64,000 nt of DNA from an uncultured Alphaproteobacteria bacterium (GCA_946188105.1 CAMHTQ010000005.1:200-64199), one strand, 5' to 3'; positions 6,166 through 64,000 are shown, numbered from the stretch's first letter. Numbers and translations are program-made. The notes: generated by a model from the letters alone, not told the origin.

Positions 6166-6239
6166 GCCCTAATAGTCTAGTGGTAAAACACGTCCTTGGT
6201 AAGGACGAGTCGCAAGTCCGATTCTTGCTTAGGGCACCA
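6166..6239 (+). tRNA. tRNA-Thr (GGU), CCA encoded
   Basis: GCCCTAA/TTAGGGC acceptor; anticodon stem CGTCC/GGACG with loop TTGGTAA. D-stem has one C-A mismatch; T-loop is TCCGATT. Confidence 0.85.
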
Positions 6240-6325: not shown

Positions 6326-6353
6326 TTGACAATTAAAAAATATAGTGTATATT
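6326..6353 (+). promoter_or_regulatory. sigma70-like promoter (TTGACA-16 nt-TATATT)
   Basis: Consensus -35 and near-consensus -10 about 30 nt upstream of ATG 6384. It overlaps the ORF-track start at 6345, which argues for the ATG at 6384. Confidence 0.45.
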
Positions 6354-6383
6354 TTTGTGTGTTGGACATTATGGGGGTCATTT

Positions 6384-8579
6384 ATGTTTACTGAATTAGA
6401 ACGCAAAGATATAAAAAAAATAGTTAAAAAGTATCGCGTGGCACATGATCATATTGCAGATTATTATGGTTCCAGACGTAATCATTTAATTTGCGATGAA
6501 TTAAGCAGACGTGCTGGGCATTATTTGTATGTTATGAATCACAATATGGATAAGATTACAGCCCAAGATGTCGAGTCATTGGTTTTATTAGTTGATACTT
6601 TTGATCAAATGCGTCGTGAACATGTTTTTGAAGAATTACAAAAGATTGCAGATTTTGATATAAAATTATATTTGGAAAACAGAAATCGCAGTTTGTTTAA
6701 ACGTATGTTTTCTCCAATAAATGATAAATTAAGTTGGTTGACCCCACAACAGATGAAAAAAATATGCGCAAGATATAAAAAATTATGCGATAAAATAAAT
6801 GATGGTGATATCTCTGGAAAAACTAATGATACGGCTGTGGATATTCGTAATGTTGCATATGCATATGCGCGTGGCATTGTAAAGGGTGATATCAAGGTTG
6901 CAACATGCAATTTAAAAAGTACATATGAGTATTTAACAACAATATGTTACCCAGAAATTATTGGTGATGATGCATATAAAGCAAGAGAGTTGTTAAAAGC
7001 AAAAATTCAAGAAATGACCGTTTCATCCGAAATTGAAGATTTTGTTCCTGTTCAAGATAATATACAAAAGTTAAATGAATCAGAATATCAATTGGACGAG
7101 AATGTTGAACAAGTTGATGCAGAAAAAGAATTGGCTGTGGCTGAAAATAATACAGTAACTGATAAAAAATCTAATGAAGATAGAATCAGTCGTGTTAAAC
7201 AGAAAATCGAAGAAAGAAAGCAAAAAGAAAACGAAAAAATTCGCCAATGGGCTAAACGTATGGAACAGCAAAAGGCCGAGCAAGAACAAAAAGCACGCGA
7301 AGTTGCCCAAGAAAGAGCCAAGATGGTTGCTGAAAATAAAGCTGAACGCGAACAGGCATTAAGAGAAAGAATTGAACAAATCAGAGAACAAGCCAAGCAT
7401 ATGGATGCTGAGGGTTTCAAATTGAAAGAAGAGGCTCGTAAAAAAGAAGCAAGTCAGGCTGAACAAACAAGATTGAAAGAAATAGCAAGACAAGAACGCA
7501 AAGAACGCAGACAGGAACATATTGACCATGCTAAAAAAGTTGCTGGGGATATGTCTGGCAAAGTTGCGAGTGCGTTTGCTGTGGTAAAAGGTAAATTGGC
7601 GACAAAGTGGCAAGAAAAGAAATCTGAATTAGAGACCGCAAAACGTAATCGCGAAATTATTCGTGATGCAGAACGTGCGTCAAAAGAGCATTGGAAAGAA
7701 TTAAAAAAGCAAGATAAAGAACAAAAGTTAGAACGGTTGGAAAATTTAGAAGCGGTACGTCAGGAAAAATTTGCTAATTTTGTAATGGATTCTGCGATGA
7801 AGATGTCCAATAAATTTGATTCTGTAAAAGATAAATTGGCAGCAAAGTGGCAAGAAAAGAAATCTGAATTAGAGATCGCAAAACGTAATCGCGAAATTAT
7901 TCGTGATGCAGAACGTGCGTCAAAAGAGCATTGGAAAGAATTAAAAGAACAAAATAAAAACAATAGAAACATTTTTGTACGTACTGCAACAGAAGCGGCT
8001 TTATTCTTGGTTGTATTCGGTGGAATTGCAATTTTAACTTATACAGATTTTGAAAATAAATCAGCAAATAAAGTAAATGTTAAAAAGGAAATAAAAGCAA
8101 AACCTGTGGTTCAAAAAGAGGTATCTGTTGCTGCAATTGATACAGTATATGCATCGGCTTTGAAGAATTATTATGGTTCTGCGCTGGATATTATTGCTGG
8201 CACAAATAAAAAAGCAGATGTTTTAACAAAATTAGAAAATCAAATTCAATCTGGTAATATCGAATTGGGTGATTATATATCTGCGGAACGTATTGCGTAT
8301 GCATATTTTATGTATCGTGAATATGGATTTAATATTGATATTTTAAATTTGGCTGTGAACGGTAATCAAAAATTAACAGATGCACAAATGGCAGAGTTAA
8401 ACAAGGTTATTATGGATGCGGGCGAATGTGGAACCGGTGTTCAACAGATGGCTAAACAACGTGTCGAAGCACGTGGTGGTCAAATGAGTCAACACAGTAA
8501 GTTTAAAAACGCAACCAAGCAACAACAACGTCAGCATTTGGCGAATTTAGGTTTGTTGAAAAAAGCACATGTAAAGTAA
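6384..8579 (+). CDS. large coiled-coil membrane protein (cytoplasmic N-domain, E/K/R/Q-rich coiled coil, one TM, ~190-aa C-terminal domain)
   Basis: Long uninterrupted ORF. Charged heptad-like region at aa ~250-540. TM segment AALFLVVFGGIAILTY. No family recognised. Confidence 0.7.
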   Translation: MFTELERKDIKKIVKKYRVAHDHIADYYGSRRNHLICDELSRRAGHYLYVMNHNMDKITAQDVESLVLLVDTFDQMRREHVFEELQKIADFDIKLYLENRNRSLFKRMFSPINDKLSWLTPQQMKKICARYKKLCDKINDGDISGKTNDTAVDIRNVAYAYARGIVKGDIKVATCNLKSTYEYLTTICYPEIIGDDAYKARELLKAKIQEMTVSSEIEDFVPVQDNIQKLNESEYQLDENVEQVDAEKELAVAENNTVTDKKSNEDRISRVKQKIEERKQKENEKIRQWAKRMEQQKAEQEQKAREVAQERAKMVAENKAEREQALRERIEQIREQAKHMDAEGFKLKEEARKKEASQAEQTRLKEIARQERKERRQEHIDHAKKVAGDMSGKVASAFAVVKGKLATKWQEKKSELETAKRNREIIRDAERASKEHWKELKKQDKEQKLERLENLEAVRQEKFANFVMDSAMKMSNKFDSVKDKLAAKWQEKKSELEIAKRNREIIRDAERASKEHWKELKEQNKNNRNIFVRTATEAALFLVVFGGIAILTYTDFENKSANKVNVKKEIKAKPVVQKEVSVAAIDTVYASALKNYYGSALDIIAGTNKKADVLTKLENQIQSGNIELGDYISAERIAYAYFMYREYGFNIDILNLAVNGNQKLTDAQMAELNKVIMDAGECGTGVQQMAKQRVEARGGQMSQHSKFKNATKQQQRQHLANLGLLKKAHVK
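7584..7706 (+). repeat. intragenic direct repeat, copy 1 (~120 nt)
   Basis: Near-identical to 7824-7946 (offset 240 bp, in frame). Includes a ~69-nt exact block starting CGCAAAACGTAATCGCGAAATT. Encodes KWQEKKSELExAKRNREIIRDAERASKEHWKELK. Confidence 0.9.
7824..7946 (+). repeat. intragenic direct repeat, copy 2
   Basis: See copy 1. I count about five mismatches. Confidence 0.9.
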
Positions 8580-8585
8580 TTCGTA

Positions 8586-8918
8586 ATGATTGATATAAAC
8601 GCAAAATTTAAACGGATGGCTGAACAGCGCGCAGAACAAGAACGTCGCGCACGGGATGCTGAAAAACGCAAATTGGCTAAACAAATGGCAAATGCAAGAT
8701 TGGTTGAAAGCTTTATGAATATTTATCAGCTGGAAAAAACCGGATTATGTGCAGAATTTGTTGCACAATATTATGAAAATAAAGTGCAAGAATTGGGGGC
8801 TGAAAAGGTAGAAAAATTGAAATCCCAGGCGGCCGAATATATCCGTATGTTGAAATCCAGTGGCCAAATTTATGAGAATATCAGTTGGTTTCGGTTTGTT
8901 ATGAATAATGCAAGATAG
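8586..8918 (+). CDS. hypothetical protein (110 aa, basic/acidic helical N-terminus)
   Basis: ATG 6 nt after the preceding stop, so probably co-translated with the coiled-coil gene. Confidence 0.5.
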   Translation: MIDINAKFKRMAEQRAEQERRARDAEKRKLAKQMANARLVESFMNIYQLEKTGLCAEFVAQYYENKVQELGAEKVEKLKSQAAEYIRMLKSSGQIYENISWFRFVMNNAR

Positions 8919-8931
8919 ATTTAATCTTTGC

Positions 8932-8960
8932 TTGCAAACAGAAATTTTTCGGGTTAAAAT
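8932..8960 (+). promoter_or_regulatory. sigma70-like promoter (TTGCAA-17 nt-TAAAAT) for the aspS leader
   Basis: Correct spacing; lies ~190 nt upstream of the aspS ATG. Confidence 0.4.
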
Positions 8961-8976
8961 CAGTTTATAGATTTTT

Positions 8977-9150
8977 GGGCGAGGCGCCGTTGAGATGACT
9001 GACAACCATGGAGGCACCAAAACCTGTAGTTCAAGTGATAAATTCGGGTGGCACCGCGCGAAAAAGAATCGCGCCCCGAAATTAACGGTAAATCGGTGCC
9101 ATAAAAATCAATGTTTTAATGGTTCCGATGCAAAATAAAAAGGGACCAAA
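8977..9150 (+). promoter_or_regulatory. T-box leader (tRNA-Asp-sensing riboswitch) of aspS
   Basis: 9041-9058 AATTCGGGTGGCACCGCG equals the T-box consensus AANNNGGGTGGNACCGCG. Antiterminator: A1 TTCGGG/CCCGAA, 7-nt bulge TGGCACC, A2 GCGCG/CGCGC. GAC codons at 8997 and 9001 sit in an upstream hairpin apex. The downstream gene is aspS. Confidence 0.75.
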
Positions 9151-10923
9151 ATGTTATCTTTGAAATCTAAATACAGAACACATACTTGTGGTGAATTAAA
9201 TATAAGTAATGTCGGTGAAACTGTTACATTGTCTGGATGGGTTCATCGTAAACGCGATCATGGATCTTTGTTGTTTGTTGATTTGCGTGATAATTATGGT
9301 ATTACACAGTGTGTTTTTGATGGTGGGGATGAAGTCGTAGAAAAAATTCGTCCTGAATCTGTGGTTAAAATTACTGGCAAGGTTGTTGCTCGTGATGCCG
9401 AGGCAATAAATGAAAAACTGCCCACAGGTCATATTGAAATTCAGGTGCAAAATCTTGAGGTTTTGACTAATGCTGAAACATTGCCTTTCCAAGTGTTTGG
9501 CGATGATGATACATCCGAAGAATTGCGTTATAAATATCGCTTTTTGGATTTAAGACGTGAAAGATTACATTACAACATTTTAATGCGTAATAAAATGATG
9601 AAGTGGTTAAGAGATAAAATGTGGAATTTAGGATTTTCAGAATTTCAAACCCCATTGTTGACCGCTGATTCACCAGAGGGTGCACGTAGTTTTTTGGTGC
9701 CAAGTCGTTTGCATCATGGTAAGTTTTATGCGTTGCCTCAGGCACCACAAATGTTTAAACAATTGTTGCAAGTGTCTGGATTCGATAGATATTTCCAAAT
9801 TGCACCTTGTTTTCGTGATGAAGATTTGCGTGCTGACAGATTGTTGGAATTTTACCAATTAGATATGGAAATGTCTTTTGTCGATTTGCCAGAAATTCAA
9901 GCAGTGGGCGAAGCAATTATGCCAGAAATGGTTAAAACATTTGCTCCGGATGCAAATGTTTATCCTGATATTCCACATATTTCATATGATGATGCGATGT
10001 TGAAATATGGATGCGATAAACCAGATTTGCGTAATCCAATTTTAATCAGTGATGTTACGGAAATTTTCCGTGGTTCTGAATTTGGAATCTTTGCAAATGC
10101 AATTGAAAATAGTGCGGTTGTTCGTGCTGTGCCAGCACCAAATTCCGCTGATAAACCTCGTTCTTGGTTTGATAAACTGGGTGAATATGCAACCCGCGAA
10201 TTAGGACTGGGGGGATTAGCATATATAGTATTTGCAGATGAACCAAAAGGACCAGTTGCGAAAAAATTGGATGCAGAACGTATTGCAAAATTGAAAGAAA
10301 TCGCAGGTGATAATTCATCGTTGTTCTTTGTTTGTGATAATGTTGATGTCGCAGCCAAGGCAGCAGGTAAATTGCGTAACAAATTTGGTGCAGATTTAGG
10401 ATTGGTCAAAGAACGTGACTTTGCATTTTGTTGGGTTGATAATTTCCCATTCTTTGAACCAGATGAAGAACGCGGTGGCGCACCTGCATTTACACATAAC
10501 CCATTCTCGTATCCTATTGTGGATTCTGTGGAAGAATTGGATACACGCGATCCATTTACGATTAAAGCCGCACAATTCGATATGGTGTTGAACGGTATTG
10601 AAATTTGCAGTGGTGGATTGCGTAATTATAACCCCGAGGTTATGAAGAAATGTTTTGAAATTGCTGGTTATCCAATCGAGGCAGTTGAAAAGAACTTTTC
10701 TGGATTATACACATCATTCCAATATGGTGCACCACCACATGGCGGTTGTGCGTTTGGTATTGAACGTGTGGTTTCTGAAATTTTGGGTATTGGTGAAAGT
10801 TTGCGTGAAATCGTTGCGTTCCCTGCAAACCAACGTGGACAAGATTTGTTGATGGGATCTCCAAACGAGGTAACCGAACAACAATTACGTGATGTCCATA
10901 TCCAAGTCCGTAAGAAAAATTAA
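9151..10923 (+). CDS. aspS: aspartate--tRNA ligase (bacterial type, 590 aa)
   Basis: N-terminal OB fold (TVTLSGWVHRKRDHGSLLFVDLRD). Class II motifs FYQIAPCFRDED and GGCAFGIERV. Bacterial insertion domain present. Confidence 0.95.
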   Translation: MLSLKSKYRTHTCGELNISNVGETVTLSGWVHRKRDHGSLLFVDLRDNYGITQCVFDGGDEVVEKIRPESVVKITGKVVARDAEAINEKLPTGHIEIQVQNLEVLTNAETLPFQVFGDDDTSEELRYKYRFLDLRRERLHYNILMRNKMMKWLRDKMWNLGFSEFQTPLLTADSPEGARSFLVPSRLHHGKFYALPQAPQMFKQLLQVSGFDRYFQIAPCFRDEDLRADRLLEFYQLDMEMSFVDLPEIQAVGEAIMPEMVKTFAPDANVYPDIPHISYDDAMLKYGCDKPDLRNPILISDVTEIFRGSEFGIFANAIENSAVVRAVPAPNSADKPRSWFDKLGEYATRELGLGGLAYIVFADEPKGPVAKKLDAERIAKLKEIAGDNSSLFFVCDNVDVAAKAAGKLRNKFGADLGLVKERDFAFCWVDNFPFFEPDEERGGAPAFTHNPFSYPIVDSVEELDTRDPFTIKAAQFDMVLNGIEICSGGLRNYNPEVMKKCFEIAGYPIEAVEKNFSGLYTSFQYGAPPHGGCAFGIERVVSEILGIGESLREIVAFPANQRGQDLLMGSPNEVTEQQLRDVHIQVRKKN

Positions 10924-15914: not shown

Positions 15915-17699
15915 TTATTTATTTGTCTTTTTTAATAAACTTTGCACCGCTAATGGAAAATCATGGGATTTGGCAAGATAGGAACCGCTGACTAATAAAT
16001 CGGCACCAGCCTCCCAACATTTTTGTGCGGTTTGTGGATTTATTCCACCATCAACAGAAATTATGTATTTTAATCCATGCTTTTTACGAGTAACAGCCAA
16101 AGCCAAAATTTTATTTAATACATCAGGATTAAATGATTGACCAGCCGCCCCAGGTTTTACACCCATTATTAAAATCTCGTCAATATTTTTTAAAACAGGT
16201 ACCAATGCAGATACGGGTGTTTCTGGATTCAATGCAATTCCAGCACGTTTGCCACATGCACGAATATTGCGTAATGCATCGTTAATGCCAGTTGTGTTTT
16301 CTGATAATATTATTGTGTCGGCACCCGCGGCAAGGGCATTATTTGACCAGAATACAGCGTTTTCTGTCATTAAATGAACGTGCAGGTGACTTTTAGTATT
16401 TGCACGAATTTGTTTTAATTCAGGAATACCCCCATATATTTCATCAACATATAAACCATCCATAATATCAACGTGGATTGTCGAGATTCCTGCGGACTCG
16501 AACATTTTGTATGTTAGGGGACTTAACATATTGAAGCATAATGTTGATGGAGCAATTGGAATAAATTTTGGTTTTTGTTTTTTGGGTTTACGTATAAATA
16601 ATTTTTTTATTTTATCTATATATGCCTGATGTTTTTCCATGCGTGCAATGTATGCCTCGCGTGCAGGTTTTTCACAATCCAGAACATAATTTGATAATGC
16701 GGTAATTGTTGCATCGGCATGATAATTTTCTGCGGGTAATCCAAATACATTTTCGATAACATCAACAACACCGTTTATTTGAGTGCCACCACCAGTAATG
16801 ATAATTTTGTTTGGCATATATTCAGATACAGCCGCCAGAGACATTTCTTTTATTTTACCAATAATTTCTGTAACACGTGGAACAACAATATCGTTAACAT
16901 CGCCACGTGTAAAATCATATGCTGTATCGGCTGGAACCAAATGATCCATAGAACGTGGTATTAAATTGGCGGTCATACGTTTTATTCTTTCTGCTTCGTC
17001 AAAATCCAAATTTAATGCACGTGTTAAATCCAATGTTACATTGGACATACCCATTTCTAGTTTTTCATGCCAACATACACCGTTATTATTCCATATTGAG
17101 AGCGATGTAAATTCAGCACCCAAATCAATGAACAATATTGTTTGATTGGGTTTGCGTATAGTCATGCTTTGTAAATATTGTGGATCAAACAGGCCATTAT
17201 ATTGTATGTGTGCCTTGTGCAATAAGGATACAACCTCGTTCAAACGGGCGTTTTCATAGCAAATAACACCGAATTCTGATATTAATTGATGGTCGATACA
17301 TCCAACAGGATTTGGTGTTTCCCGAGCCGATGGGATATCATATTTTAATGGAATTATATGAATAGGTGAAAACCCAGTTGGAATGGCAATTTTGGATATC
17401 TGGGCGCGTATATCTGTTTCGGTTATTTTATGTTCGCTGTTCCAGACGGTTGTTTGATAAGGATTCAAAAATTCAGATTTTCCGAAATTTCCAGTTATAT
17501 ATGCAGAATCAAAATGTGTTTTTAATTCTTCTTCCAGGTTTTGAATTACCGACCGTATGGCGAATTGTTGGTTAAAGTTTTCGCACATCGCAGTTGCCGA
17601 TGCGGCAATTTTTCCAGCACAAATTCTGTGTGCGATTCCACGGACGCAACTGGTTCCGATATCAAGACATAAAAAACGAGGGTCAAAAAAATAATTCAT
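15915..17699 (-). CDS. ftsA: cell-division protein FtsA fused in frame to ribulose-phosphate 3-epimerase
   Basis: aa 1-350 show actin-fold motifs (LDIGTSCVRG, FIDLGAEFT, IITGGGTQINGVVDVIENVFGLP), directly after ftsQ. aa 354-380 form a basic amphipathic linker. aa 381-594 are Rpe-like (IAPS, HVDIMDG, HVHLM, VKPGAAGQSF, SVDGGI, AGADLLVSGS). Confidence 0.75.
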   Translation of the reverse strand: MNYFFDPRFLCLDIGTSCVRGIAHRICAGKIAASATAMCENFNQQFAIRSVIQNLEEELKTHFDSAYITGNFGKSEFLNPYQTTVWNSEHKITETDIRAQISKIAIPTGFSPIHIIPLKYDIPSARETPNPVGCIDHQLISEFGVICYENARLNEVVSLLHKAHIQYNGLFDPQYLQSMTIRKPNQTILFIDLGAEFTSLSIWNNNGVCWHEKLEMGMSNVTLDLTRALNLDFDEAERIKRMTANLIPRSMDHLVPADTAYDFTRGDVNDIVVPRVTEIIGKIKEMSLAAVSEYMPNKIIITGGGTQINGVVDVIENVFGLPAENYHADATITALSNYVLDCEKPAREAYIARMEKHQAYIDKIKKLFIRKPKKQKPKFIPIAPSTLCFNMLSPLTYKMFESAGISTIHVDIMDGLYVDEIYGGIPELKQIRANTKSHLHVHLMTENAVFWSNNALAAGADTIILSENTTGINDALRNIRACGKRAGIALNPETPVSALVPVLKNIDEILIMGVKPGAAGQSFNPDVLNKILALAVTRKKHGLKYIISVDGGINPQTAQKCWEAGADLLVSGSYLAKSHDFPLAVQSLLKKTNK

Positions 17700-40918: not shown

Positions 40919-42499
40919 ATGAGTATGAATAGTATGTTAGAAACAGCGGTCCAGCAATGGCCAGAGAACCTGTTTTTAGTACGTGAGGGGATTACGTATT
41001 CTGCGTTTATGGAAATGGTAAAAGCACGTGCGGTAACGCTGATGGAACACGGCATTGGTGTCGGGGATACAGTCGGTGTGTTATCACATAATATTCCTCA
41101 ATTTCCGCTCACATTGTTTGCAATATGGTATATCGGGGCGCGGGCCTTGATGTTGGATACAAATTTGACACCATTTGAGTATGATAATATGGCGAAAGTT
41201 GCTGGATGTAAATATGTCTGTGCAGAAACGTCTTTTTTCTATAAAACAGATGTGTTCAAATTTATCGAGATTACCGCCAAAGACGGCAATCCAAATCCAA
41301 TGTTGCGTCCGTACGAGTTCAAAGATGATGATATTGCGACTTTGTCTTTTACATCTGGTTCAACCGGCAATCCAAAGGTTGTGCCATTGACGCACTATAA
41401 TTTAACAGAGTGTGCAAATTCATTAGAAGATATGTCTGAATATTTTGGTTCTGGGGATGTCATGTATGGCTTTTTACCATTGTATCATATATTCGGGTTT
41501 TCTATTGGAATTTTGGCAACTGTACATTTTGGTGCAGGAATTGTGTTGCAGCCAACGGTTAATCCGAAATACATTTTGGATGATTTTAAAAAATTCCGTC
41601 CACATGTTATTCCGGCTGTTCCACGTTTGTGGGAATTATTTAGAAATAAAATCATGGATACTTTAAAAGCACAAAAAAAGTGGCGTATTGTGGAATTTAT
41701 TTTACGCAATCGTGAACGTATCTCGGATATGGGATTGGGATTTTTTGTGCGTAAAGTCCAAGAACCTATTTTGGATATTTTCGGTGGACGTGTGAGATTG
41801 CTGATTGCGGGGGGTGCGGCAACCAAGCCCGAGGTTGAAACTTTTTATGAAAGTTTAGGATTGGCATTTATCCAAGGATATGGTTTAACAGAAACAGTTG
41901 GACCAATCTGTATTTCTAAACCAAATAAAAAGCGTATGGCTTTTTCTGTGGGTGCGCCAACAACAAATAACGAATGTGAAATTCGTGATAAAGATGAAAA
42001 TGGTGTTGGTGTTTTGTGGTTGCGTGGTCACCAAGTATTTGGCGGTTATATGAATAACGATGATGCCAATAAAGAATGTTTTGATGATAAAGGATTCTTT
42101 AATACTGGGGACATGATGTATATGGACAAAAATGGCGAATTACATTTTGCTGGTCGTAAAAAACAAATCATTGTTTTGGATTCTGGTAAAAATGTTTATC
42201 CCGATGAATTAGAGGCATTGTTCTTGGATATTCCAGGGGTAAAAAATGTTGCTGTATTTGAACACAAGGTAAAAGGTAAAACTGTTGCATACGGTGTATT
42301 TAGCGTTGATGCGGACATGACAATGGAAAAGTTGGCTGATGCAGTTGCCGAGGCAAATAAAAAGGTTGCATCATATAAATGGGTTACCCATTTTGCGATG
42401 ACAACAGACGATTTGCCAATGACATCTACACAGAAAATAAAACATCATATTGTTCGCAAGAATTTGATTGATGGTAAATATCCAATAAGACATGAATAA
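40919..42499 (+). CDS. AMP-dependent synthetase/ligase (long-chain acyl-CoA synthetase, FAA1/COG1022-like), paralog 1
   Basis: SFTSGSTGNPKVVPLTH, GYGLTET, TGD, GRKKQIIVLDSGKNVYPDELE, TSTQKIKH adenylation motifs. Confidence 0.85.
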   Translation: MSMNSMLETAVQQWPENLFLVREGITYSAFMEMVKARAVTLMEHGIGVGDTVGVLSHNIPQFPLTLFAIWYIGARALMLDTNLTPFEYDNMAKVAGCKYVCAETSFFYKTDVFKFIEITAKDGNPNPMLRPYEFKDDDIATLSFTSGSTGNPKVVPLTHYNLTECANSLEDMSEYFGSGDVMYGFLPLYHIFGFSIGILATVHFGAGIVLQPTVNPKYILDDFKKFRPHVIPAVPRLWELFRNKIMDTLKAQKKWRIVEFILRNRERISDMGLGFFVRKVQEPILDIFGGRVRLLIAGGAATKPEVETFYESLGLAFIQGYGLTETVGPICISKPNKKRMAFSVGAPTTNNECEIRDKDENGVGVLWLRGHQVFGGYMNNDDANKECFDDKGFFNTGDMMYMDKNGELHFAGRKKQIIVLDSGKNVYPDELEALFLDIPGVKNVAVFEHKVKGKTVAYGVFSVDADMTMEKLADAVAEANKKVASYKWVTHFAMTTDDLPMTSTQKIKHHIVRKNLIDGKYPIRHE

Positions 42500-42511
42500 A
42501 AAGGACATAAT

Positions 42512-44092
42512 ATGACTTTATATGATTTGTTAGAAGAAAATATCAAGAAAGATCCTAAATTAGTTTTCTTGGTGCGCGAAAATATTACTTTTGAAGATTT
42601 TCCAAAGTATATCAAGGCACGTGCCGCTACATTGGCAAAAGAGGGTATAAAGGCCGGTGATGTTGTTGGTTTGTTGTCACATAATCTACCACAATTTGTG
42701 TACACTTTGTTCGCAATTTGGTATCTGGGTGGCAAGGTTTTATTGTTGGATACAAACTTGACATCTATTGAATATGAAAATATGACAACACTTACAGATT
42801 GTAAATTCGTTGTTGCTGAAAAATCTTTCTTTTATAAAACCAAGAACTTTAAGTTCATTGATATAGAAACAGAAGATAAAGATAGTGGTGAAGATATTAA
42901 ACGTTACAAGGTCAAAGATGATGATATTGCAACATTATCATTTACATCGGGTTCAACTGGAACACCAAAGATTGTGCCATTGACACATAAAAATTTGGTT
43001 TCTTGTTCAGAAAGTTTGGAAAGTTTGAGCATATTCTTGCGTCATGGCGAGGTTATGTATGCTTTCTTGCCTTTGTATCACGTGTTTGGTTTTGCTGTGG
43101 GATTTTTGGCACCAATGCATTTTGGTATGGGAATCTTGTTGCAATCGACAATCAATCCAAATGCAATTTTGCAAGATTTTGCTACATATAAACCACAAGT
43201 TATTCCTGCGGTTCCAAAATTGTTCGAAATATTCCGCAAGAAAATTATTGATGGCGTCAAGGCAAAGAAAAAATGGTGGTTGGTATCATTTATTATGAAA
43301 CACCAGAAGGGTTTGCGTATGATTGGGTTGGGCAAATTGGTTGATAAAGTTTTAGGTCAAATCAATTCTGTATTTGGTGGTCGTGTACGTTGCATGGTTG
43401 CAGGTGGTGCGGCGACCAAGCCAGAGGTTGAAAATTTCTATAATAAATTAGGAGTTGCCTTTGTTCAGGGTTATGGTATGACCGAAACCGTTGGACCAAT
43501 CTGTTGTTCTAAACCATTGAAAAAACGTGTGCCATTTGCATTTGGGGCACCATTAGGTCAATGTTGTTGCGAAATTCGTAATGCAGATGAAAATGGTATT
43601 GGTATGTTGTGGGTCAAAGGCGACCAGGTGTTTGGTGGCTATTTGAATAATGACGAGGCCAATAAAGAATGTTTTGATAAAAACGGATTCTTCTGCACTG
43701 GTGATTTGGTATCCATTGATAAAAATGGTGAATATCACTTTGCGGGGAGAAAGAAACAAGTGATTGTTTTGGATTCTGGTAAAAATGTTTATCCTGATGA
43801 ATTAGAAGGATTATTCATTGAAATCCCAGGGGTAAAAAATGTCGCTGTGTTTGAACACGAGGTCAAAGGTAAAACTGTTGCATATGGTGTATTCAGTGTA
43901 GATCCAGACATGACATTAGAAAAACTGGGTGCGGAAATTGCAGAAAAGAATAAAAAGGTTGCATCGTATAAATGGGTTACTCATTTTGCTATGACAACCG
44001 ATGACTTGCCTGTAACCAGTACGCAAAAAGTAAAACATCATGTTGTACGGAAATATTTGATGGATGGTAAATATATCGAAAAAGGTCTGTAA
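42512..44092 (+). CDS. AMP-dependent synthetase/ligase, paralog 2
   Basis: Same motif set, collinear with paralog 1 over the full length. 12-nt spacer after paralog 1. Confidence 0.85.
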   Translation: MTLYDLLEENIKKDPKLVFLVRENITFEDFPKYIKARAATLAKEGIKAGDVVGLLSHNLPQFVYTLFAIWYLGGKVLLLDTNLTSIEYENMTTLTDCKFVVAEKSFFYKTKNFKFIDIETEDKDSGEDIKRYKVKDDDIATLSFTSGSTGTPKIVPLTHKNLVSCSESLESLSIFLRHGEVMYAFLPLYHVFGFAVGFLAPMHFGMGILLQSTINPNAILQDFATYKPQVIPAVPKLFEIFRKKIIDGVKAKKKWWLVSFIMKHQKGLRMIGLGKLVDKVLGQINSVFGGRVRCMVAGGAATKPEVENFYNKLGVAFVQGYGMTETVGPICCSKPLKKRVPFAFGAPLGQCCCEIRNADENGIGMLWVKGDQVFGGYLNNDEANKECFDKNGFFCTGDLVSIDKNGEYHFAGRKKQVIVLDSGKNVYPDELEGLFIEIPGVKNVAVFEHEVKGKTVAYGVFSVDPDMTLEKLGAEIAEKNKKVASYKWVTHFAMTTDDLPVTSTQKVKHHVVRKYLMDGKYIEKGL

Positions 44093-44094
44093 GC

Positions 44095-45669
44095 ATGAAT
44101 ATGTACCAGTTCTTTGAACAGACAATGGAAAAGTGTCCTGATACACTTTTCCTTGTCCGAGAAAATATAAAGTTTGCGGATTTTCCAAAATTGGTCAAGG
44201 CGCGTGCCACAACACTTAAAAATGCAGGCGTGGTTGCCGGTCAAACGGTTGGTGTGTTGGCACATAATATTCCAGAATTTATTATCACTTTGTTTGCTAT
44301 TTGGTATCTGGGTGGACGTGTTCTGTTGTTGGATACAAATTTAACACAAACAGAATATGATAATATGACTAAACTTACATGTTGCGAGTTTGTCGTTGCC
44401 GAGGAATCTTTTTTCTATGATGCAAAAGGTTTTAAGTTCTTTGATATTCAAACCAAAGATAACGACGTGGATGAGGATTTAATGCCATACCCGTTGGATG
44501 CAAATGATATTGCAACATTATCATTTACATCTGGGTCAACTGGAACACCAAAGATTGTACCACTGACACATTTTAATTTAATAGAGTGTGCAAATTCGTT
44601 TGATGATTTTAACGAGTGGTTTGAAAAGGGTGGGGTTCTGTATGGATTTTTGCCTCTGTACCATATATTTGGCTTTGCGGCAGGATTCTTGGCACCGTTG
44701 CATTTCCAAATGGGAATTTTATTGCAACCTGCAATAAATCCAAAATTGATTTTGGCTGATTTTAAAGAATACAGACCACATGTTATTCCATCTGTTCCAA
44801 AAATGTGGGAATTGTTCCGCAAGAAAATTATTGAAGAAATCAAGGCACAGAAAAAATGGTGGTTGGCATCGTTTATATTGAAAAATCAAACATGGTTAAA
44901 GAAAATTGGTTTGGGATTTTTGGTTCGCAAACTTCAAAATGCTGTCAAGGCGGTGTTTGGTGGTCGTGTGCAGTTGATGATTGCAGGTGGGGCGGCAACC
45001 AAGCCCGAGGTTGAAACATTTTATAACCAATTAGGAATCGCATTTATCCAAGGTTATGGTATGACGGAAACGGTGGGACCATTTTGTGGTTCGCGTCCGT
45101 TGAAAAAACGTATTCCATTTGCGTTTGGAAAACCACTGGGGGCAAATGAATGTGAAATTCGTGAAAAAGATGCGTCTGGTATTGGTATGTTGTGGGTTCG
45201 TGGACATCAGGTGTTTGGCGGTTATATGAATAATGACGAAGCAAACAAAGAATGTTTTGATGAACGTGGATTTTTCAAAACAGGTGATTTGGTGTTCATG
45301 GATAAAAATGGTGAATTGCATTTTGCAGGTCGTAAAAAACAAGTGATTGTTTTGGATTCTGGTAAAAATGTTTATCCTGATGAATTAGAAGCATTATTTA
45401 TGGATATACCGGGTGTTAAAAATGTTGCCGTATTTGAACATGTTGTGGGTGGTAAAACCGTTGCATATGGTGTGTTTTCAGTAGAGCCAGATATGACCGC
45501 GGAAAAATTGGCGGATGCAGTTGCCCAGGCAAATAAAAAGGTTGCTTCATATAAATGGGTTACACATTTTGCAATGACAACCGATGATTTGCCAATGACA
45601 TCTACGCAAAAGGTTAAACATTTTATGGTTAAACAAAATTTGATAGACGGTAAATATACAGAGGTATAA
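44095..45669 (+). CDS. AMP-dependent synthetase/ligase, paralog 3
   Basis: Same motif set. ATG 2 nt after the paralog 2 stop. Confidence 0.85.
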   Translation: MNMYQFFEQTMEKCPDTLFLVRENIKFADFPKLVKARATTLKNAGVVAGQTVGVLAHNIPEFIITLFAIWYLGGRVLLLDTNLTQTEYDNMTKLTCCEFVVAEESFFYDAKGFKFFDIQTKDNDVDEDLMPYPLDANDIATLSFTSGSTGTPKIVPLTHFNLIECANSFDDFNEWFEKGGVLYGFLPLYHIFGFAAGFLAPLHFQMGILLQPAINPKLILADFKEYRPHVIPSVPKMWELFRKKIIEEIKAQKKWWLASFILKNQTWLKKIGLGFLVRKLQNAVKAVFGGRVQLMIAGGAATKPEVETFYNQLGIAFIQGYGMTETVGPFCGSRPLKKRIPFAFGKPLGANECEIREKDASGIGMLWVRGHQVFGGYMNNDEANKECFDERGFFKTGDLVFMDKNGELHFAGRKKQVIVLDSGKNVYPDELEALFMDIPGVKNVAVFEHVVGGKTVAYGVFSVEPDMTAEKLADAVAQANKKVASYKWVTHFAMTTDDLPMTSTQKVKHFMVKQNLIDGKYTEV

Positions 45670-50412: not shown

Positions 50413-52584
50413 ATGAAAAAAATAGCAAAGTTTTTATTGGCTGTGGTTTCTTTTGCACCTGTGGCGGCATTTGGTGCTGGGCCTGTTGCTACTACGGCGG
50501 GCAGTAATTTAACCGCATATAATGGTAATATGGGTTCTGTTGCGGGGAACCAATGGAATAATGCAACAAATGCCCGTGGAAATATTCCAGTGGCCAAGGC
50601 CGATTATGGAAATTGCAACGCATTGATGTTGCGTTGTGCCAGCCCAAAATGTTCTGGTGGTGGATGTTCAGATTTAGAGGTGGCTAAATCTATTGCGACA
50701 GGATGCGTGAATTCTAATTCTACATGTAAAAAACATGGTGATGCATTGATAGCATTTATTGCTGGGCAATTAGTGTCTGATTCTGTGGCGGCGGCGAATA
50801 AACAGGCATCGGATGCTGCGGCTGCCCAGGCACAAAGTGCGGAACAAATCGCACAGATGCAACAACAAATGCAAATGCAGATGCAACAAATGCAGGAACA
50901 AAACAATGCACAAATTGCATCATTACAAAGTGCATTAGAGGAAAGTCAACGTGCCACGACCGAGGCGGTGAATGCTGCGGCACAGGCGGCGGCTCAACAA
51001 ACGGTCAGTATTGCACCGGTGGTTGATGCGGGAACTGGGTTAACAACAACCCAAGAGGTTGCGGCAAAATCCGGTGTGTCCGAGGATGTTATTACCCGTG
51101 CAACAATTTCAGGGCAAATTTTAACAAGTATGGATGGTGTAGAATCCAGTTTGAATGCTTTGAAAACAACTATGCGTGATGTATTCAGATATGCACAATG
51201 TAACGAGGTAAATGGTAATAATTGCCAGGGACCAAAACGTGTGAAAAAATTCCGCGAGGTTGCAAGAACATTTATTGATCCATATTACGCAGTTGAAAGA
51301 AATTTAGAGAGTGCATTAGAACGCGCACAATCCGTTGGTGTTGATATGGGAAATATTTATATGTTTTTCAGCGGCAGTTGTCATCGTTGGGCTGAATTTA
51401 TATGTAGATATGCTACCGAAGAGTTACCAAAATATAGCAGTACGAGTTGCGTTGATGGTATATCAAAGCCAGATAAGGCAAATGGAATTATTGGTAAAGG
51501 TCTGGCTTGTTCTAAGGATATGATTGCACCGCCCGAGGATGTTGTTGGTTGTGTGGTTAATAAAAATTTAGATAACACAAATTATGATGATTTTAATCAA
51601 AGGGTTTTGAATCCAGAGAACACTGATGATGGTTCAATTCGTGTTGGTTGTGCCGATAGTTTTGGCAGCGTGTTTAAACATCGTCGTGGTAATGGTTCTG
51701 GCAGCAGTAATAGTATTGATATAGAATTATTAGAAATTATGATAAATCAGGACGAGGCCGGAAATGAATATGGCAAGAAAAACTGTTCAGAAGGTAGTGG
51801 TTCATCATGTTATTGTGGACCAACCGAGGGTGGCGGACAGGCACAATTGGCAAATTTAAAGAAAATTGTTTTGGCGAAAAATTTAGGTAAAAATTGTTGT
51901 TCATCAAGTGATACTTTGGGAACGTGTACAAATGATTGTTCTGATATGGATATAGATGTCGCATATGTTAGTCCAACATTGGCAATGTGTGATGTGCATG
52001 CATGGAATGCGGGCTTCAAAGATAATACAGCAATGAATTCAAGTTCTGAGAATCAAGAGTTAGCCAAACAAACATTGGGATTAAAGGCAACGGTTATAAC
52101 ACAACAAATGTATAAAATATATTCTACATTGGATTCAATGATACGACAGGTAAAGATTTTATTAGAAAAAGAAGTGTTAAAATCAAATCTGCAAGTTGCT
52201 GGTGGTTCAGCTGGGGATTCAGATGGTGGTTCCGCAGACAAGGTTGAATTTGAAAATTGTAACAAGGGTGAAGATTCCGCAGTGTTGAGTTGTTTGAATC
52301 GTAATGTTGCAAAATATGAACCATTTGTTTCCAAGGGTAACAGAAGAAATGATGTTTTGAAAGCGATGTTCAGGGATCAAGAGGTATTAAATCGTTATGC
52401 ATCTGATGATCCTAATAAAAAGGTGGTGTCAAGTTGTAGTGAAAAAATGGATAAGAACACTATGGGAACTTGTTATAATGATATAATTGCTGGTATTAAT
52501 AAATTGAGTAAAAAGATACAAAAAGAATCGCGCGGTTCTAATGGTGGTGGTTTAACCTTTACATTGGGTGGTGTACAACAATAA
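50413..52584 (+). CDS. large secreted Cys-rich protein with Gln/Met-rich coiled coil (723 aa)
   Basis: Signal peptide MKKIAKFLLAVVSFAPVAAFGA; SD GGAAGAGAG. QMQQQMQMQMQQMQEQ tract; more than 30 Cys. No family recognised. Confidence 0.65.
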   Translation: MKKIAKFLLAVVSFAPVAAFGAGPVATTAGSNLTAYNGNMGSVAGNQWNNATNARGNIPVAKADYGNCNALMLRCASPKCSGGGCSDLEVAKSIATGCVNSNSTCKKHGDALIAFIAGQLVSDSVAAANKQASDAAAAQAQSAEQIAQMQQQMQMQMQQMQEQNNAQIASLQSALEESQRATTEAVNAAAQAAAQQTVSIAPVVDAGTGLTTTQEVAAKSGVSEDVITRATISGQILTSMDGVESSLNALKTTMRDVFRYAQCNEVNGNNCQGPKRVKKFREVARTFIDPYYAVERNLESALERAQSVGVDMGNIYMFFSGSCHRWAEFICRYATEELPKYSSTSCVDGISKPDKANGIIGKGLACSKDMIAPPEDVVGCVVNKNLDNTNYDDFNQRVLNPENTDDGSIRVGCADSFGSVFKHRRGNGSGSSNSIDIELLEIMINQDEAGNEYGKKNCSEGSGSSCYCGPTEGGGQAQLANLKKIVLAKNLGKNCCSSSDTLGTCTNDCSDMDIDVAYVSPTLAMCDVHAWNAGFKDNTAMNSSSENQELAKQTLGLKATVITQQMYKIYSTLDSMIRQVKILLEKEVLKSNLQVAGGSAGDSDGGSADKVEFENCNKGEDSAVLSCLNRNVAKYEPFVSKGNRRNDVLKAMFRDQEVLNRYASDDPNKKVVSSCSEKMDKNTMGTCYNDIIAGINKLSKKIQKESRGSNGGGLTFTLGGVQQ

Positions 52585-52604
52585 AAAAATTTGTAAATGC
52601 ATTG

Positions 52605-52630
52605 AATCCGCCATATTGGCGGATTTTTTT
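52605..52630 (+). terminator. rho-independent terminator
   Basis: ATCCGCCA-TAT-TGGCGGAT followed by a T7 run. Confidence 0.75.
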
Positions 52631-52649
52631 ATATAATATATTGAATGAT

Positions 52650-63003: not shown

Positions 63004-63014
63004 ACAAAATAAAA

Positions 63015-63040
63015 AACCGCCAAATATGGCGGTTTGATTT
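63015..63040. terminator. bidirectional rho-independent terminator
   Basis: AACCGCCA-AATA-TGGCGGTT with a flanking A-run and T-rich tail, between convergent genes. Confidence 0.7.
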
Positions 63041-64000
63041 TTAGTCGTCTGTTTCAGCAAAACGATATGCTTTTTTACGTTTGCCACTATCTAACTCTTT
63101 CTTTCTTAAACGAATTGTTGCAGGTGTTACCTCTACTAACTCGTCATCTTGGATATAAGACAGTGCTTCTTCTAATGAGATTTTTCTTGGTGGTGCCAAG
63201 AATAATTTCTCGTCTGCTGTAACTGAACGTACATTGGTTAATTGTTTACCGCGAACAGGATTTACCTCGATATCATTTTCTTTGCTGTGTTCACCAACAA
63301 TCATACCGGAATAAACCTCGGTTTGTGGACCAACAAATAAAACACCACGTGGTTCCAAATTGTGCAGGGCATACGTTGTTGTTTGTCCTGCCTCCATAGA
63401 AACCAAAACACCTGGACGATATTGGCTGATTGGACCACGATATTCGTCATATTTATCAAATACGCGGTTCATAATACCTGTGCCACGTGTGTCGGTGCGG
63501 AATTCAGACAAATAACCAATCAAGCCACGTGATGGTGCAGAAAATACGATACGTGTTTTTCCAATACCAGATGGTTTCATTTCTGTAATTGTTGCTTTAC
63601 GTTTTGTCATTTTTTCAATAACAACACCGCTGAATTCGTCATCCACATCAATCACAACTTCTTCGATTGGTTCTAATTTTTCACCGTTGTCACCGGTGTG
63701 CATAATAACACGTGGACGCGATACAGATAATTCAAATCCTTCACGGCGCATTGTTTCGATTAAAATACCTAATTGCAATTCACCACGACCAGATACTTCG
63801 AAACTTTCGTTGTTTGCACTTTGTGTAACTTTTAATGCGATATTGGTTTCTGCTTCGCGGAATAATCTTTCGCCGATTACACGTGATGTCAATTTTTTAC
63901 CAGATTTACCAGCCAATGGAGATGTGTTAACGAAAAATGTCATTGTCAGGGTAGGTGGATCGATTGGTAATGCAGGAATTGGATCAGTTACAGATGGATC
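63041..64000 (-). CDS. typA: translational GTPase TypA/BipA, C-terminal ~319 aa (5' end outside window)
   Basis: DPPTLTMTFxVNTSPLAGKSGK, GRGELQLGILIETMRREGFELSVSRPRV and the C-terminal BipA-specific domain. Frame is open to the window edge. Confidence 0.92.
   Translation of the reverse strand, partial: DPSVTDPIPALPIDPPTLTMTFFVNTSPLAGKSGKKLTSRVIGERLFREAETNIALKVTQSANNESFEVSGRGELQLGILIETMRREGFELSVSRPRVIMHTGDNGEKLEPIEEVVIDVDDEFSGVVIEKMTKRKATITEMKPSGIGKTRIVFSAPSRGLIGYLSEFRTDTRGTGIMNRVFDKYDEYRGPISQYRPGVLVSMEAGQTTTYALHNLEPRGVLFVGPQTEVYSGMIVGEHSKENDIEVNPVRGKQLTNVRSVTADEKLFLAPPRKISLEEALSYIQDDELVEVTPATIRLRKKELDSGKRKKAYRFAETDD

Follow-up and report, generated by a model that had tools for sequence, protein, structure and literature searches.

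A strongly reduced and probably functional T-box riboswitch in the aspS leader of an uncultured gut alphaproteobacterium

The T-box core upstream of aspS and its conservation

The stretch of DNA analysed here (the window) comprises 64,000 nucleotides (nt) from an uncultured alphaproteobacterium (GCA_946188105.1, CAMHTQ010000005.1:200-64199) and carries at 9151-10923 (+) the gene aspS, which codes for an aspartate--tRNA ligase (AspRS) of 590 residues (NF001750, 716.8 bits; TIGR00459, 564.7 bits). The leader of this gene, the parts of which are listed in Table 1, holds at 9041-9058 the sequence AATTCGGGTGGCACCGCG, an exact match to the T-box consensus AANNNGGGUGGNACCGCG, which covers the 5' strand of helix A1, the 7-nt bulge and A2. 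A reading made from the sequence alone had placed a T-box core in this leader, with helices A1 and A2, bulge and loop, and had named aspS as the regulated gene; all positions that it gave for these parts were correct, and the open reading frame (ORF) with its NF001750 match bears out the choice of gene. The UGGC of the bulge is complementary to the 3' end GCCA of tRNA. Judged from sequence and its comparison among genomes, the element is a genuine T-box in reduced form. We consider it likely that this part of the aspS leader still works as a T-box riboswitch, strongly reduced though it is, with proposed sensing of tRNA-Asp and a translational output.

Table 1. Parts of the aspS leader in the window, in order of position
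Feature	Position	Strand	Sequence or pairing	Basis or remark
Sigma-70-like promoter (predicted)	8932-8960	+	TTGCAA-17 nt-TAAAAT	9/12 match to consensus; predicted transcript start at about 8967
Stem I	8977-9025	+		comparative alignment, covariation, RNAalifold
Stem I lower helix	G8977-G8979 / C9023-U9025	+		present in most relatives when each is folded singly
Stem I base helix	8983-8988 / 9013-9018	+	GGCGCC / GGCACC	one mismatch, C8985.A9016
Kink-turn (K-turn) signature	bulge 8989-8991; 8992-8993 opposite 9011-9012; then 8994 and 9010	+	G8992 A8993 opposite G9011 A9012; then G8994.G9010
Stem I upper helix (3 bp)	8995-8997 / 9007-9009	+	AUG/CAU, GUG/CAC or GCG/CGC among leaders
Apical loop (9 nt)	8998-9006	+	ACUGACAAC	mostly conserved across 14 leaders
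Specifier codon (Asp) and 3' purine	9001-9003; 9004	+	GAC; A	in apical loop
Purine string	9033-9043	+	AAGUG-AUAAAU (AAGUGAUAAAU)	abuts helix A1; equivalent of the Stem III flanks 5'-RRRxG ... AA-3'
Antiterminator/antisequestrator	9043-9080	+		coordinates checked in sequence; Rfam alignment; covariation
Helix A1	9043-9048 / 9075-9080	+	TTCGGG / CCCGAA
T-box bulge (7 nt)	9049-9055	+	UGGCACC
Helix A2	9056-9060 / 9070-9074	+	GCGCG / CGCGC	9-nt loop 9061-9069
Platform hairpin	9092-9129	+	5' arm 9092-9108, 3' arm 9113-9129	-14.7 kcal/mol
Ribosome-binding region (putative)	9142-9147; 9151-9153	+	Shine-Dalgarno (SD)-like GGGA(CC); AUG

The only meaningful Rfam match in this region was to the T-box family RF00230, at 8904-9081 with 28.7 bits (E = 8.9e-5 when the leader is searched and 0.018 when the whole window is), and its alignment is confident in the antiterminator part only; at gathering thresholds Rfam reported four tRNAs in the whole window and no T-box. 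Chance resemblance to the consensus in an ordinary intergenic region was therefore weighed against the comparative data. By chance the pattern GGGTGGNACCRCG, with at most one mismatch, should turn up 0.17 times in a window, and 14 of 100 shuffled windows held at least one match to it, so that the site taken alone is only suggestive, and a sub-threshold Rfam score is likewise what a chance match could give. Against this, the position of the motif is kept in 13 other genomes, 14 consecutive alignment columns are invariant, and the helices covary to an extent that none of 500 shuffles equalled; these comparative data already rule chance resemblance out, and we give it next to no weight.

The comparison rests on 80 aspS loci obtained by searching one genome per species with the AspRS of the window. 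In 12 of 13 relatives (L001-L013) the motif GGGTGGCACC lies 103-112 nt upstream of the aspS start, and in the remaining one, L010, 65 nt upstream; it is absent from the other 67 loci, which are the more distant ones. These 13 further species-level genomes, the AspRS proteins of which are 73-88% identical to that of the window, share with it the 14-nt core GGGTGGCACCGCGC without a single change, and GGGUGGCACCGCGC is likewise identical throughout the alignment of 14 leaders formed by the window and L001-L013.

Pairing in this alignment was counted on a structure written from the sequences, with the columns aligned by MAFFT and with controls in which the 3' partners were slid by 1-3 columns. On the MAFFT alignment 92.2% of cells were paired, as compared with 30-59% in the slid controls; 13 of 21 pairs had changed on both sides, and none of 500 shuffles did as well as the real alignment in pairing, in covariation score or in how many pairs covaried. 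When the leaders were realigned to a covariance model built from them (R1), the figures were 93.5% and 33-55%, respectively, this alignment being one fitted to the structure, and RNAalifold yielded the same helices. Changes on both sides affected all five pairs counted in the base helix of Stem I, two of three in its upper helix, three of six in A1 and two of six in A2, the remaining A1 and A2 pairs being invariant G-C. The outer pairs of A1 alternate between C-G, A-U and G.U, and the extension of A2 between A-U, G-C and U-A. R1 itself scores 87-119 bits on the aspS leaders from which it was built. The best Rfam match, the conservation in 13 relatives and the covariation together support the T-box core that had been proposed. 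The sequence-only reading had tied its own rejection to two outcomes occurring together, an RF00230 score that is not near the threshold and a lack of conservation or covariation in orthologous aspS leaders; the score does lie far below the threshold, but conservation and covariation are clear, and the rejection therefore fails.

The specifier loop and the domains that are missing

Stem I is built on a base helix whose sequence differs in every genome, followed by a K-turn signature, in which the U-G-A and G-A are invariant in all 14 leaders and which is known here as a sequence signature only. The hairpin had initially been drawn with the same GGCGCC/GGCACC pairing, which stands with its one mismatch, and with an inner helix between GTTG (8989-8992) and CAAC (9003-9006). 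The latter we rejected: GTTG is unconserved, CAAC is loop sequence, and the K-turn and the 3-bp upper helix take the place of this pairing. The apical loop reads (A/C)C(U/C)-GAC-A(A/C)(C/A) in 12 leaders, ACU-AAC-AAC in L003 (about 2850-2858) and ACC-AAC-AAC in L011 (about 2848-2856), so that its central triplet is GAC in 12 of the 14 leaders and AAC (Asn) in two, and the next base is A in every one. Because of these patterns we take the triplet at 9001-9003 as the specifier and A9004 as the conserved 3' purine. Two GAC triplets had been put forward as Asp codons and both are present; the second is this specifier, and the first (8997-8999) was rejected in that role, as its G is paired in the helix and the triplet is GCC in L005 and L013.

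The specifier would pair with the anticodon GUC of tRNA-Asp. Bacterial tRNA-Asp and tRNA-Asn both have G73, which matches UGGC, and a non-discriminating AspRS accepts both of these tRNAs; the occasional AAC specifier suggests that the AspRS of this clade also charges tRNA-Asn. The window and 17 related loci were searched for a gene for tRNA-Asp or tRNA-Asn, and none was found.

At about 100 nt the element is as compact as had been noticed from the sequence, and the resemblance then drawn to the ultrashort class holds, with the specifier in the apical loop and neither a platform nor Stems II and III. Stem I ends in its 9-nt specifier loop and no distal platform (AG bulge and distal loop, the interdigitated double T-loop, which in other T-boxes stacks on the tRNA elbow) was found in it, cmscan deleting 74 model positions. 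A Stem II with S-turn and the IIA/B pseudoknot (F-box) were found in none of the 14 clade leaders, either in the Rfam alignment or in that of the leaders; what connects Stem I to the purine string is a linker of 14-20 nt (about 14 nt in the window), unstructured and poorly conserved. The Stem III hairpin is absent, though the purine string AAGUG/AUAA that would flank it is retained: its columns AAGU.AUAA are invariant or near-invariant, and cmscan places the string on the flanks of Stem III and deletes Stem III itself. In T-boxes in general, Stem I and the discriminator are obligatory and Stem II is optional, a truncated Stem I hardly binds tRNA unless Stem II is present, and an antiterminator without Stem III binds tRNA poorly, the purine string 5'-RRRxG-Stem III-AA-3' being conserved (PMC7583486). 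In the literature that we searched, no T-box is described that has lost the platform and both of these stems together. We regard the element as a descendant of the T-box family; it possesses the defining sequence, structure and specifier, and what it lacks are the optional domains and an Rfam score above the threshold.

A metagenome scan with AAGTNAWAANNNNGGGTGGDACCGCG, seeking mini T-boxes with another discriminator base, returned more than 120 matches; the 80 inspected looked like ordinary Firmicutes T-boxes, mostly followed by a terminator-like hairpin and a U-run, and scored 25-40 bits with R1. Among these Firmicutes T-boxes, L096 (551-747; 101 bits) and L086 (3894-4116; 95.8 bits) pass the Rfam threshold with Stem III deleted in the alignment, and they share with the window the junction AAGUGAUAAAUCAGGG (also seen as AAGUGAUAAAUCAGGGUGG.ACCGCG), in which the purine string abuts helix A1. 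Unlike the window element they have a full Stem I, Stem II, the pseudoknot and canonical terminators, and reach only 25-40 bits with R1. Stem III is called indispensable in PMC7583486, yet these two T-boxes pass the threshold without it.

A search with R1 also gave a weak match just upstream of aspS in L028, a metagenome-assembled genome (MAG) labelled 'Rickettsiales' from deer colon, the AspRS of which is 53% identical to that of the window. There RF00230 matches at 2828-2972 with 49.4 bits (E = 5e-10), and the aligned parts include the K-turn, a Stem II with GAA...AGUA, the F-box pseudoknot, Stem III and the UGGC bulge; the apical loop, UUUAACACA, presents AAC followed by A. Among relatives of the L028 AspRS in this lineage of 'Rickettsiales' MAGs, the aspS leaders of L201 (about 1860-1975), L205 (about 435-587) and L206 (about 415-576) have the same architecture, with apical loops UAUAACAAA, UUUAACAGA and ACCAACAAU, respectively. 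The specifier is AAC (Asn) in all four, and L201 has a UGGU bulge instead of UGGC. L202 (1544-1980) retains the antiterminator only, directly downstream of a gene for a 23S rRNA intervening-sequence protein (PF05635), and looks like a T-box in decay; no T-box was found before aspS in L203, L204, L207 and L208. In L208 a divergent gatB (1-116; GatB_N, GatB_Yqey) adjoins aspS, which indicates that a tRNA-dependent amidation pathway exists in that lineage. The presence of a fuller T-box in this independent lineage argues that T-box control of aspS in gut Alphaproteobacteria is not a one-off, and the near identity of the L206 loop ACCAACAAU with the L011 loop ACCAACAAC suggests that the form found in the window is a further reduction of the L028 type.

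The expression platform and the proposed output

Upstream of the T-box, most related leaders have, at a similar distance, a TTG...-16/18-TA...T pair like that of the promoter predicted in the window. Downstream of it lies a conserved expression platform, which went unmentioned in the sequence-only reading. It was analysed by per-sequence folds, because the MAFFT alignment of this region is too poor in the 3' arm for column covariation, and by this method the platform hairpin is present in 13 of 14 leaders. Its 5' arm, GG(G/U)UGCC(A/G)AAAU, is almost invariant, and its 3' arm (a U-run and GCxCCC) is variable. Within the 5' arm, GGUGCCA at 9095-9101 is complementary to the T-box bulge, and the duplex between 9048-9056 and 9094-9102 has 9 bp and -17.2 kcal/mol, with -13 to -17 kcal/mol in all 13 hairpin-bearing leaders. 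On the other side, positions 9110-9116 and 9120-9126 of the 3' arm region can pair with GGGACCAAAAUGUU at 9142-9155, which includes the SD and the AUG, to give 14 bp in two blocks (-12.3 kcal/mol). A tiny ORF (AUG-UUU-UAA, 9111-9119) also lies in the hairpin, about 10 nt past GGUGCC; as it is unconserved in relatives, it is probably meaningless.

The minimum-free-energy structure of the whole leader of the window holds both the duplex of T-box and GGUGCC and the pairing of the 3' arm with SD and AUG. Matching changes were seen in L001, L002 and L004, where an arm with ACACC or GCACU faces an SD with GGGUGU or GGUGU, and in the minimum-free-energy structure of many other leaders it is the CCCC of the A1 3' strand that pairs with GGG(A), around an intact hairpin. 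In ensemble modelling the cost of forcing the antiterminator was 0.0-3.8 kcal/mol, which fits a bistable switch, and forcing it lifted the predicted accessibility of the AUG from 0.20 to 0.68 in the window, with a smaller or absent rise in some relatives.

The commonest mode of T-box action, transcription attenuation, in which the 3' strand of the antiterminator would alternatively form an intrinsic terminator, finds some support in L012, where GGGUGCC is followed by GUUUUC. Against it, a terminator-like stem followed by a U-run was sought across 8961-9150 and none was found, the sequence after GGUGCC is A-rich in most relatives, and nothing downstream is complementary to GCGCCCCGAA; we therefore think a classical attenuator very unlikely here. 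Terminators are used by only about 10% of riboswitches in Pseudomonadota (PMC12452182). Considering the conserved, bulge-complementary GGUGCC(A/G), the opposite arm of its hairpin, which could mask the ribosome-binding site together with the AUG, and the lack of a terminator, we infer that control is translational and that the pairing of T-box and GGUGCC would belong to the OFF state. In the translational class with an ultrashort Stem I, a sequestrator helix masks the SD in competition with the antisequestrator; here the modelling points to two candidate maskers of the ribosome-binding site, namely the 3' arm of the hairpin and the CCCC of the A1 3' strand.

In the mechanism that we propose for translational control by tRNA-Asp, the leader would begin at its own promoter. 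Comparison of the sequences shows a Stem I whose apical loop presents GAC followed by A and, some 25 nt on, the purine string with the discriminator right behind it. By analogy with the T-box family, uncharged tRNA-Asp would pair through its GUC anticodon with the specifier and through its GCCA end with UGGC, and this pairing would stabilise A1 and A2, which charged tRNA would be unable to do. Without uncharged tRNA, the bulge and its neighbours would pair with the downstream GGUGCC(A/G), which imitates in cis the 3' end of the tRNA, and this pairing would open both A1 and the platform hairpin; the C- and U-rich strands thus freed (the 3' arm of the hairpin and/or the CCCC of the A1 3' strand) would then cover the GGGA SD and the AUG. 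With tRNA bound, GGUGCC would be back in its own hairpin and the ribosome site open.

Several observations weigh against a functional tRNA-sensing switch of this kind. The RF00230 score of 28.7 bits is far under the gathering score of 93, and the RNA is without both of the elements that raise tRNA affinity in characterised T-boxes, the double T-loop platform of Stem I and Stem II with its pseudoknot, as well as without Stem III, which makes tRNA affinity a real question (PMC7583486). In L010 the platform hairpin is lacking and folding predicts an open SD. In ensemble modelling the SD is predicted to be about 0.2-0.3 unpaired in both the ON and the OFF state, at 0.32 vs. 0.25 on average; complementarity of the 3' arm to the SD is clearly above that of shuffles in only 5 of 13 leaders, and cognate duplexes of arm and SD are barely better than non-cognate ones (-8.0 vs. 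-7.3 kcal/mol).

A rival reading is that of a relic T-box that no longer senses tRNA, in which the core would be kept for a tRNA-independent structure (UGGCACC paired with GGUGCCA, setting basal translation) or as a protein site, for example for AspRS. All auxiliary tRNA-binding domains, which are needed when Stem I is short, are missing (PMC7583486), the conserved cis partner could alone explain the invariance of the bulge, and L202 shows that T-boxes do decay in these lineages. A relic does not readily account for the specifier loop, the 3' purine and the K-turn letters, which are kept in 14 genomes while the neighbouring helices turn over, a pattern that is difficult to understand unless there is an anticodon to pair with. 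Moreover, the specifier changes only from GAC to AAC, which is not random drift, as the tRNAs of both codons suit a non-discriminating AspRS and UGGC, and the purine string, which contacts the tRNA 3'-end duplex, is also kept. We thus consider a relic unlikely and prefer a functional, reduced T-box.

Host, related T-boxes and implications

The closest AspRS proteins, 86-94% identical to that of the window, are metagenomic, and those with a name are assigned to 'Alphaproteobacteria bacterium' or 'Candidatus Enterousia', in agreement with the alphaproteobacterial origin that had been read from the sequence; an exact match to the AspRS of the window was sought and no database record was found. 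The genomes with an AspRS 73-88% identical are rumen and gut MAGs, Candidatus Enterousia among them, which NCBI taxonomy lists under Alphaproteobacteria incertae sedis. Further genes of the window, namely an alpha-type AddB, UvrB, RecA, MnmE and GyrB, agree with such a host. The window has a G+C content of 34-39% and a strongly positive GC skew. On the strength of these sequence affinities, we assign the host to the Candidatus Enterousia group as an uncultured alphaproteobacterium of the animal gut.

Between a tRNA-Thr gene (6166-6239) and the aspS leader, the window has at 6345-8918 two ORFs (744 and 110 residues) without a Pfam or NCBIfam match. In L009 and L010 the tRNA-Thr gene adjoins the leader directly, and hence 6345-8918 of the window may be an insertion beside a tRNA gene. 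In L001 (about 2745-2800) and L012 (about 2780-2822), some 40 nt ending in GGGGCACCAGATG lie between the promoter and the T-box; this segment resembles the 3' end of the neighbouring tRNA-Thr and the bases downstream of it, as arranged in L009, and may be a duplicated tRNA 3' end left after an integration event. Elsewhere in the window, residues 47-339 of a 594-residue ORF (15915-17699, -) match FtsA/PilM-like actin-fold families and residues 382-591 match ribulose-phosphate 3-epimerase; the ORF is an unusual fusion, or else two genes read through. At 40919-45669 lie three ORFs in tandem (526, 526 and 524 residues), the first of which codes for an AMP-binding (acyl-CoA-ligase-type) enzyme, and the three may form a paralogous array. 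The matches that Rfam gave to Phe_leader (63007-63076, -; 30.5 bits, E = 0.46) and Trp_leader (52539-52632, +; 28.2 bits, E = 0.14) are below threshold and probably due to chance.

Translational T-boxes with an ultrashort Stem I have reportedly been described for ileS of Actinobacteria by Sherwood, Grundy and Henkin in 2015. These actinobacterial ileS T-boxes (structures 6UFG and 6UFM, Mycobacterium/Nocardia; class II of the T-box database TBDB) form the closest known class to the element of the window, and the TBDB class II model has been applied to Actinobacteria only. Both have a short Stem I with a K-turn and an apical-loop specifier but no double T-loop platform, and both lack a terminator, have an output expected at the ribosome-binding site and share the same discriminator core (PMC7583486). 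The ileS class, however, keeps Stem II (with an S-turn, and called essential), the IIA/B pseudoknot and Stem III, as do the L028-type relatives, whereas the window RNA has none of them; in the ileS class the S-turn of Stem II and the pseudoknot dock on the duplex of codon and anticodon. The window RNA also differs in the phylum of its host, in preceding aspS and not ileS, and in having an extra hairpin with a 5' arm that matches the T-box bulge.

The glyQS T-boxes of Bacillus and Geobacillus resemble the window element in being naturally without Stem II, with the order Stem I, linker and discriminator, and differ from it in their long Stem I with an elbow-binding platform, a Stem III that is kept and an output by transcription termination. 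Their lack of Stem II has been attributed to strong GGC:GCC pairing (PMC7583486); in the window the codon pairing would be GAC:GUC, which is weaker, and there is no platform either. As for hosts, the T-boxes of the surveys consulted come from Firmicutes, Actinobacteria, Chloroflexi, Deinococcus-Thermus and a few deltaproteobacteria, and the leuA T-box of Geobacter and Pelobacter is the only proteobacterial one in the surveys (PMC2494555, PMC3766115). Unlike the window element, it has a typical architecture, precedes a biosynthetic gene and belongs to another class of Proteobacteria. An alphaproteobacterial T-box was sought in surveys and database papers and none is listed there, this literature being covered in part, so that its absence is not thereby proven.

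The title of Saad et al. 2012 ties a Clostridium acetobutylicum T-box to tRNA-dependent amidation and Asn-tRNA synthesis. This NT-box of C. acetobutylicum (Saad et al. 2012, 2013) is described as a T-box of dual specificity, the specifier loop of which reads more than one tRNA (PMC4574755). It offers a precedent for a loop of that kind and, going by the 2012 title, for control by a T-box of the amidation route that leads to asparagine; it differs in being a full-size transcriptional T-box of Firmicutes.

A reading that joins all these features, in which a naturally minimal T-box of about 100 nt is combined with an output by strand-exchange relay and a specifier that toggles between Asp and Asn, is one that we put forward tentatively, as somewhat less probable than its opposite. 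Under such a combination, a kinked stem, an apical specifier, the purine string and a discriminator without Stem III would suffice to recognise both the identity and the charging state of a tRNA, and the cis copy GGUGCCA would compete with the real tRNA for the T-box bulge. The toggling of the specifier between GAC and AAC would reflect an AspRS that is likely non-discriminating, so that either tRNA could report its activity, and a loop that contains GAC-AAC may even read both tRNAs.

These leaders add at least two lineages of animal-gut Alphaproteobacteria to the distribution of T-boxes, and T-boxes reduced to this degree escape Rfam-based annotation. In the current structural picture tRNA is held by a truncated Stem I only with the help of Stem II, and by the antiterminator only with that of Stem III (PMC7583486). 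A T-box that occurs in nature, is conserved and has neither the platform nor these two stems would be a direct test of what makes up the minimal tRNA-sensing unit, and its small size would make it a convenient scaffold for engineered tRNA sensors. Finally, the switch between Asp and Asn in the specifier would link T-box specificity to the biology of non-discriminating AspRS.

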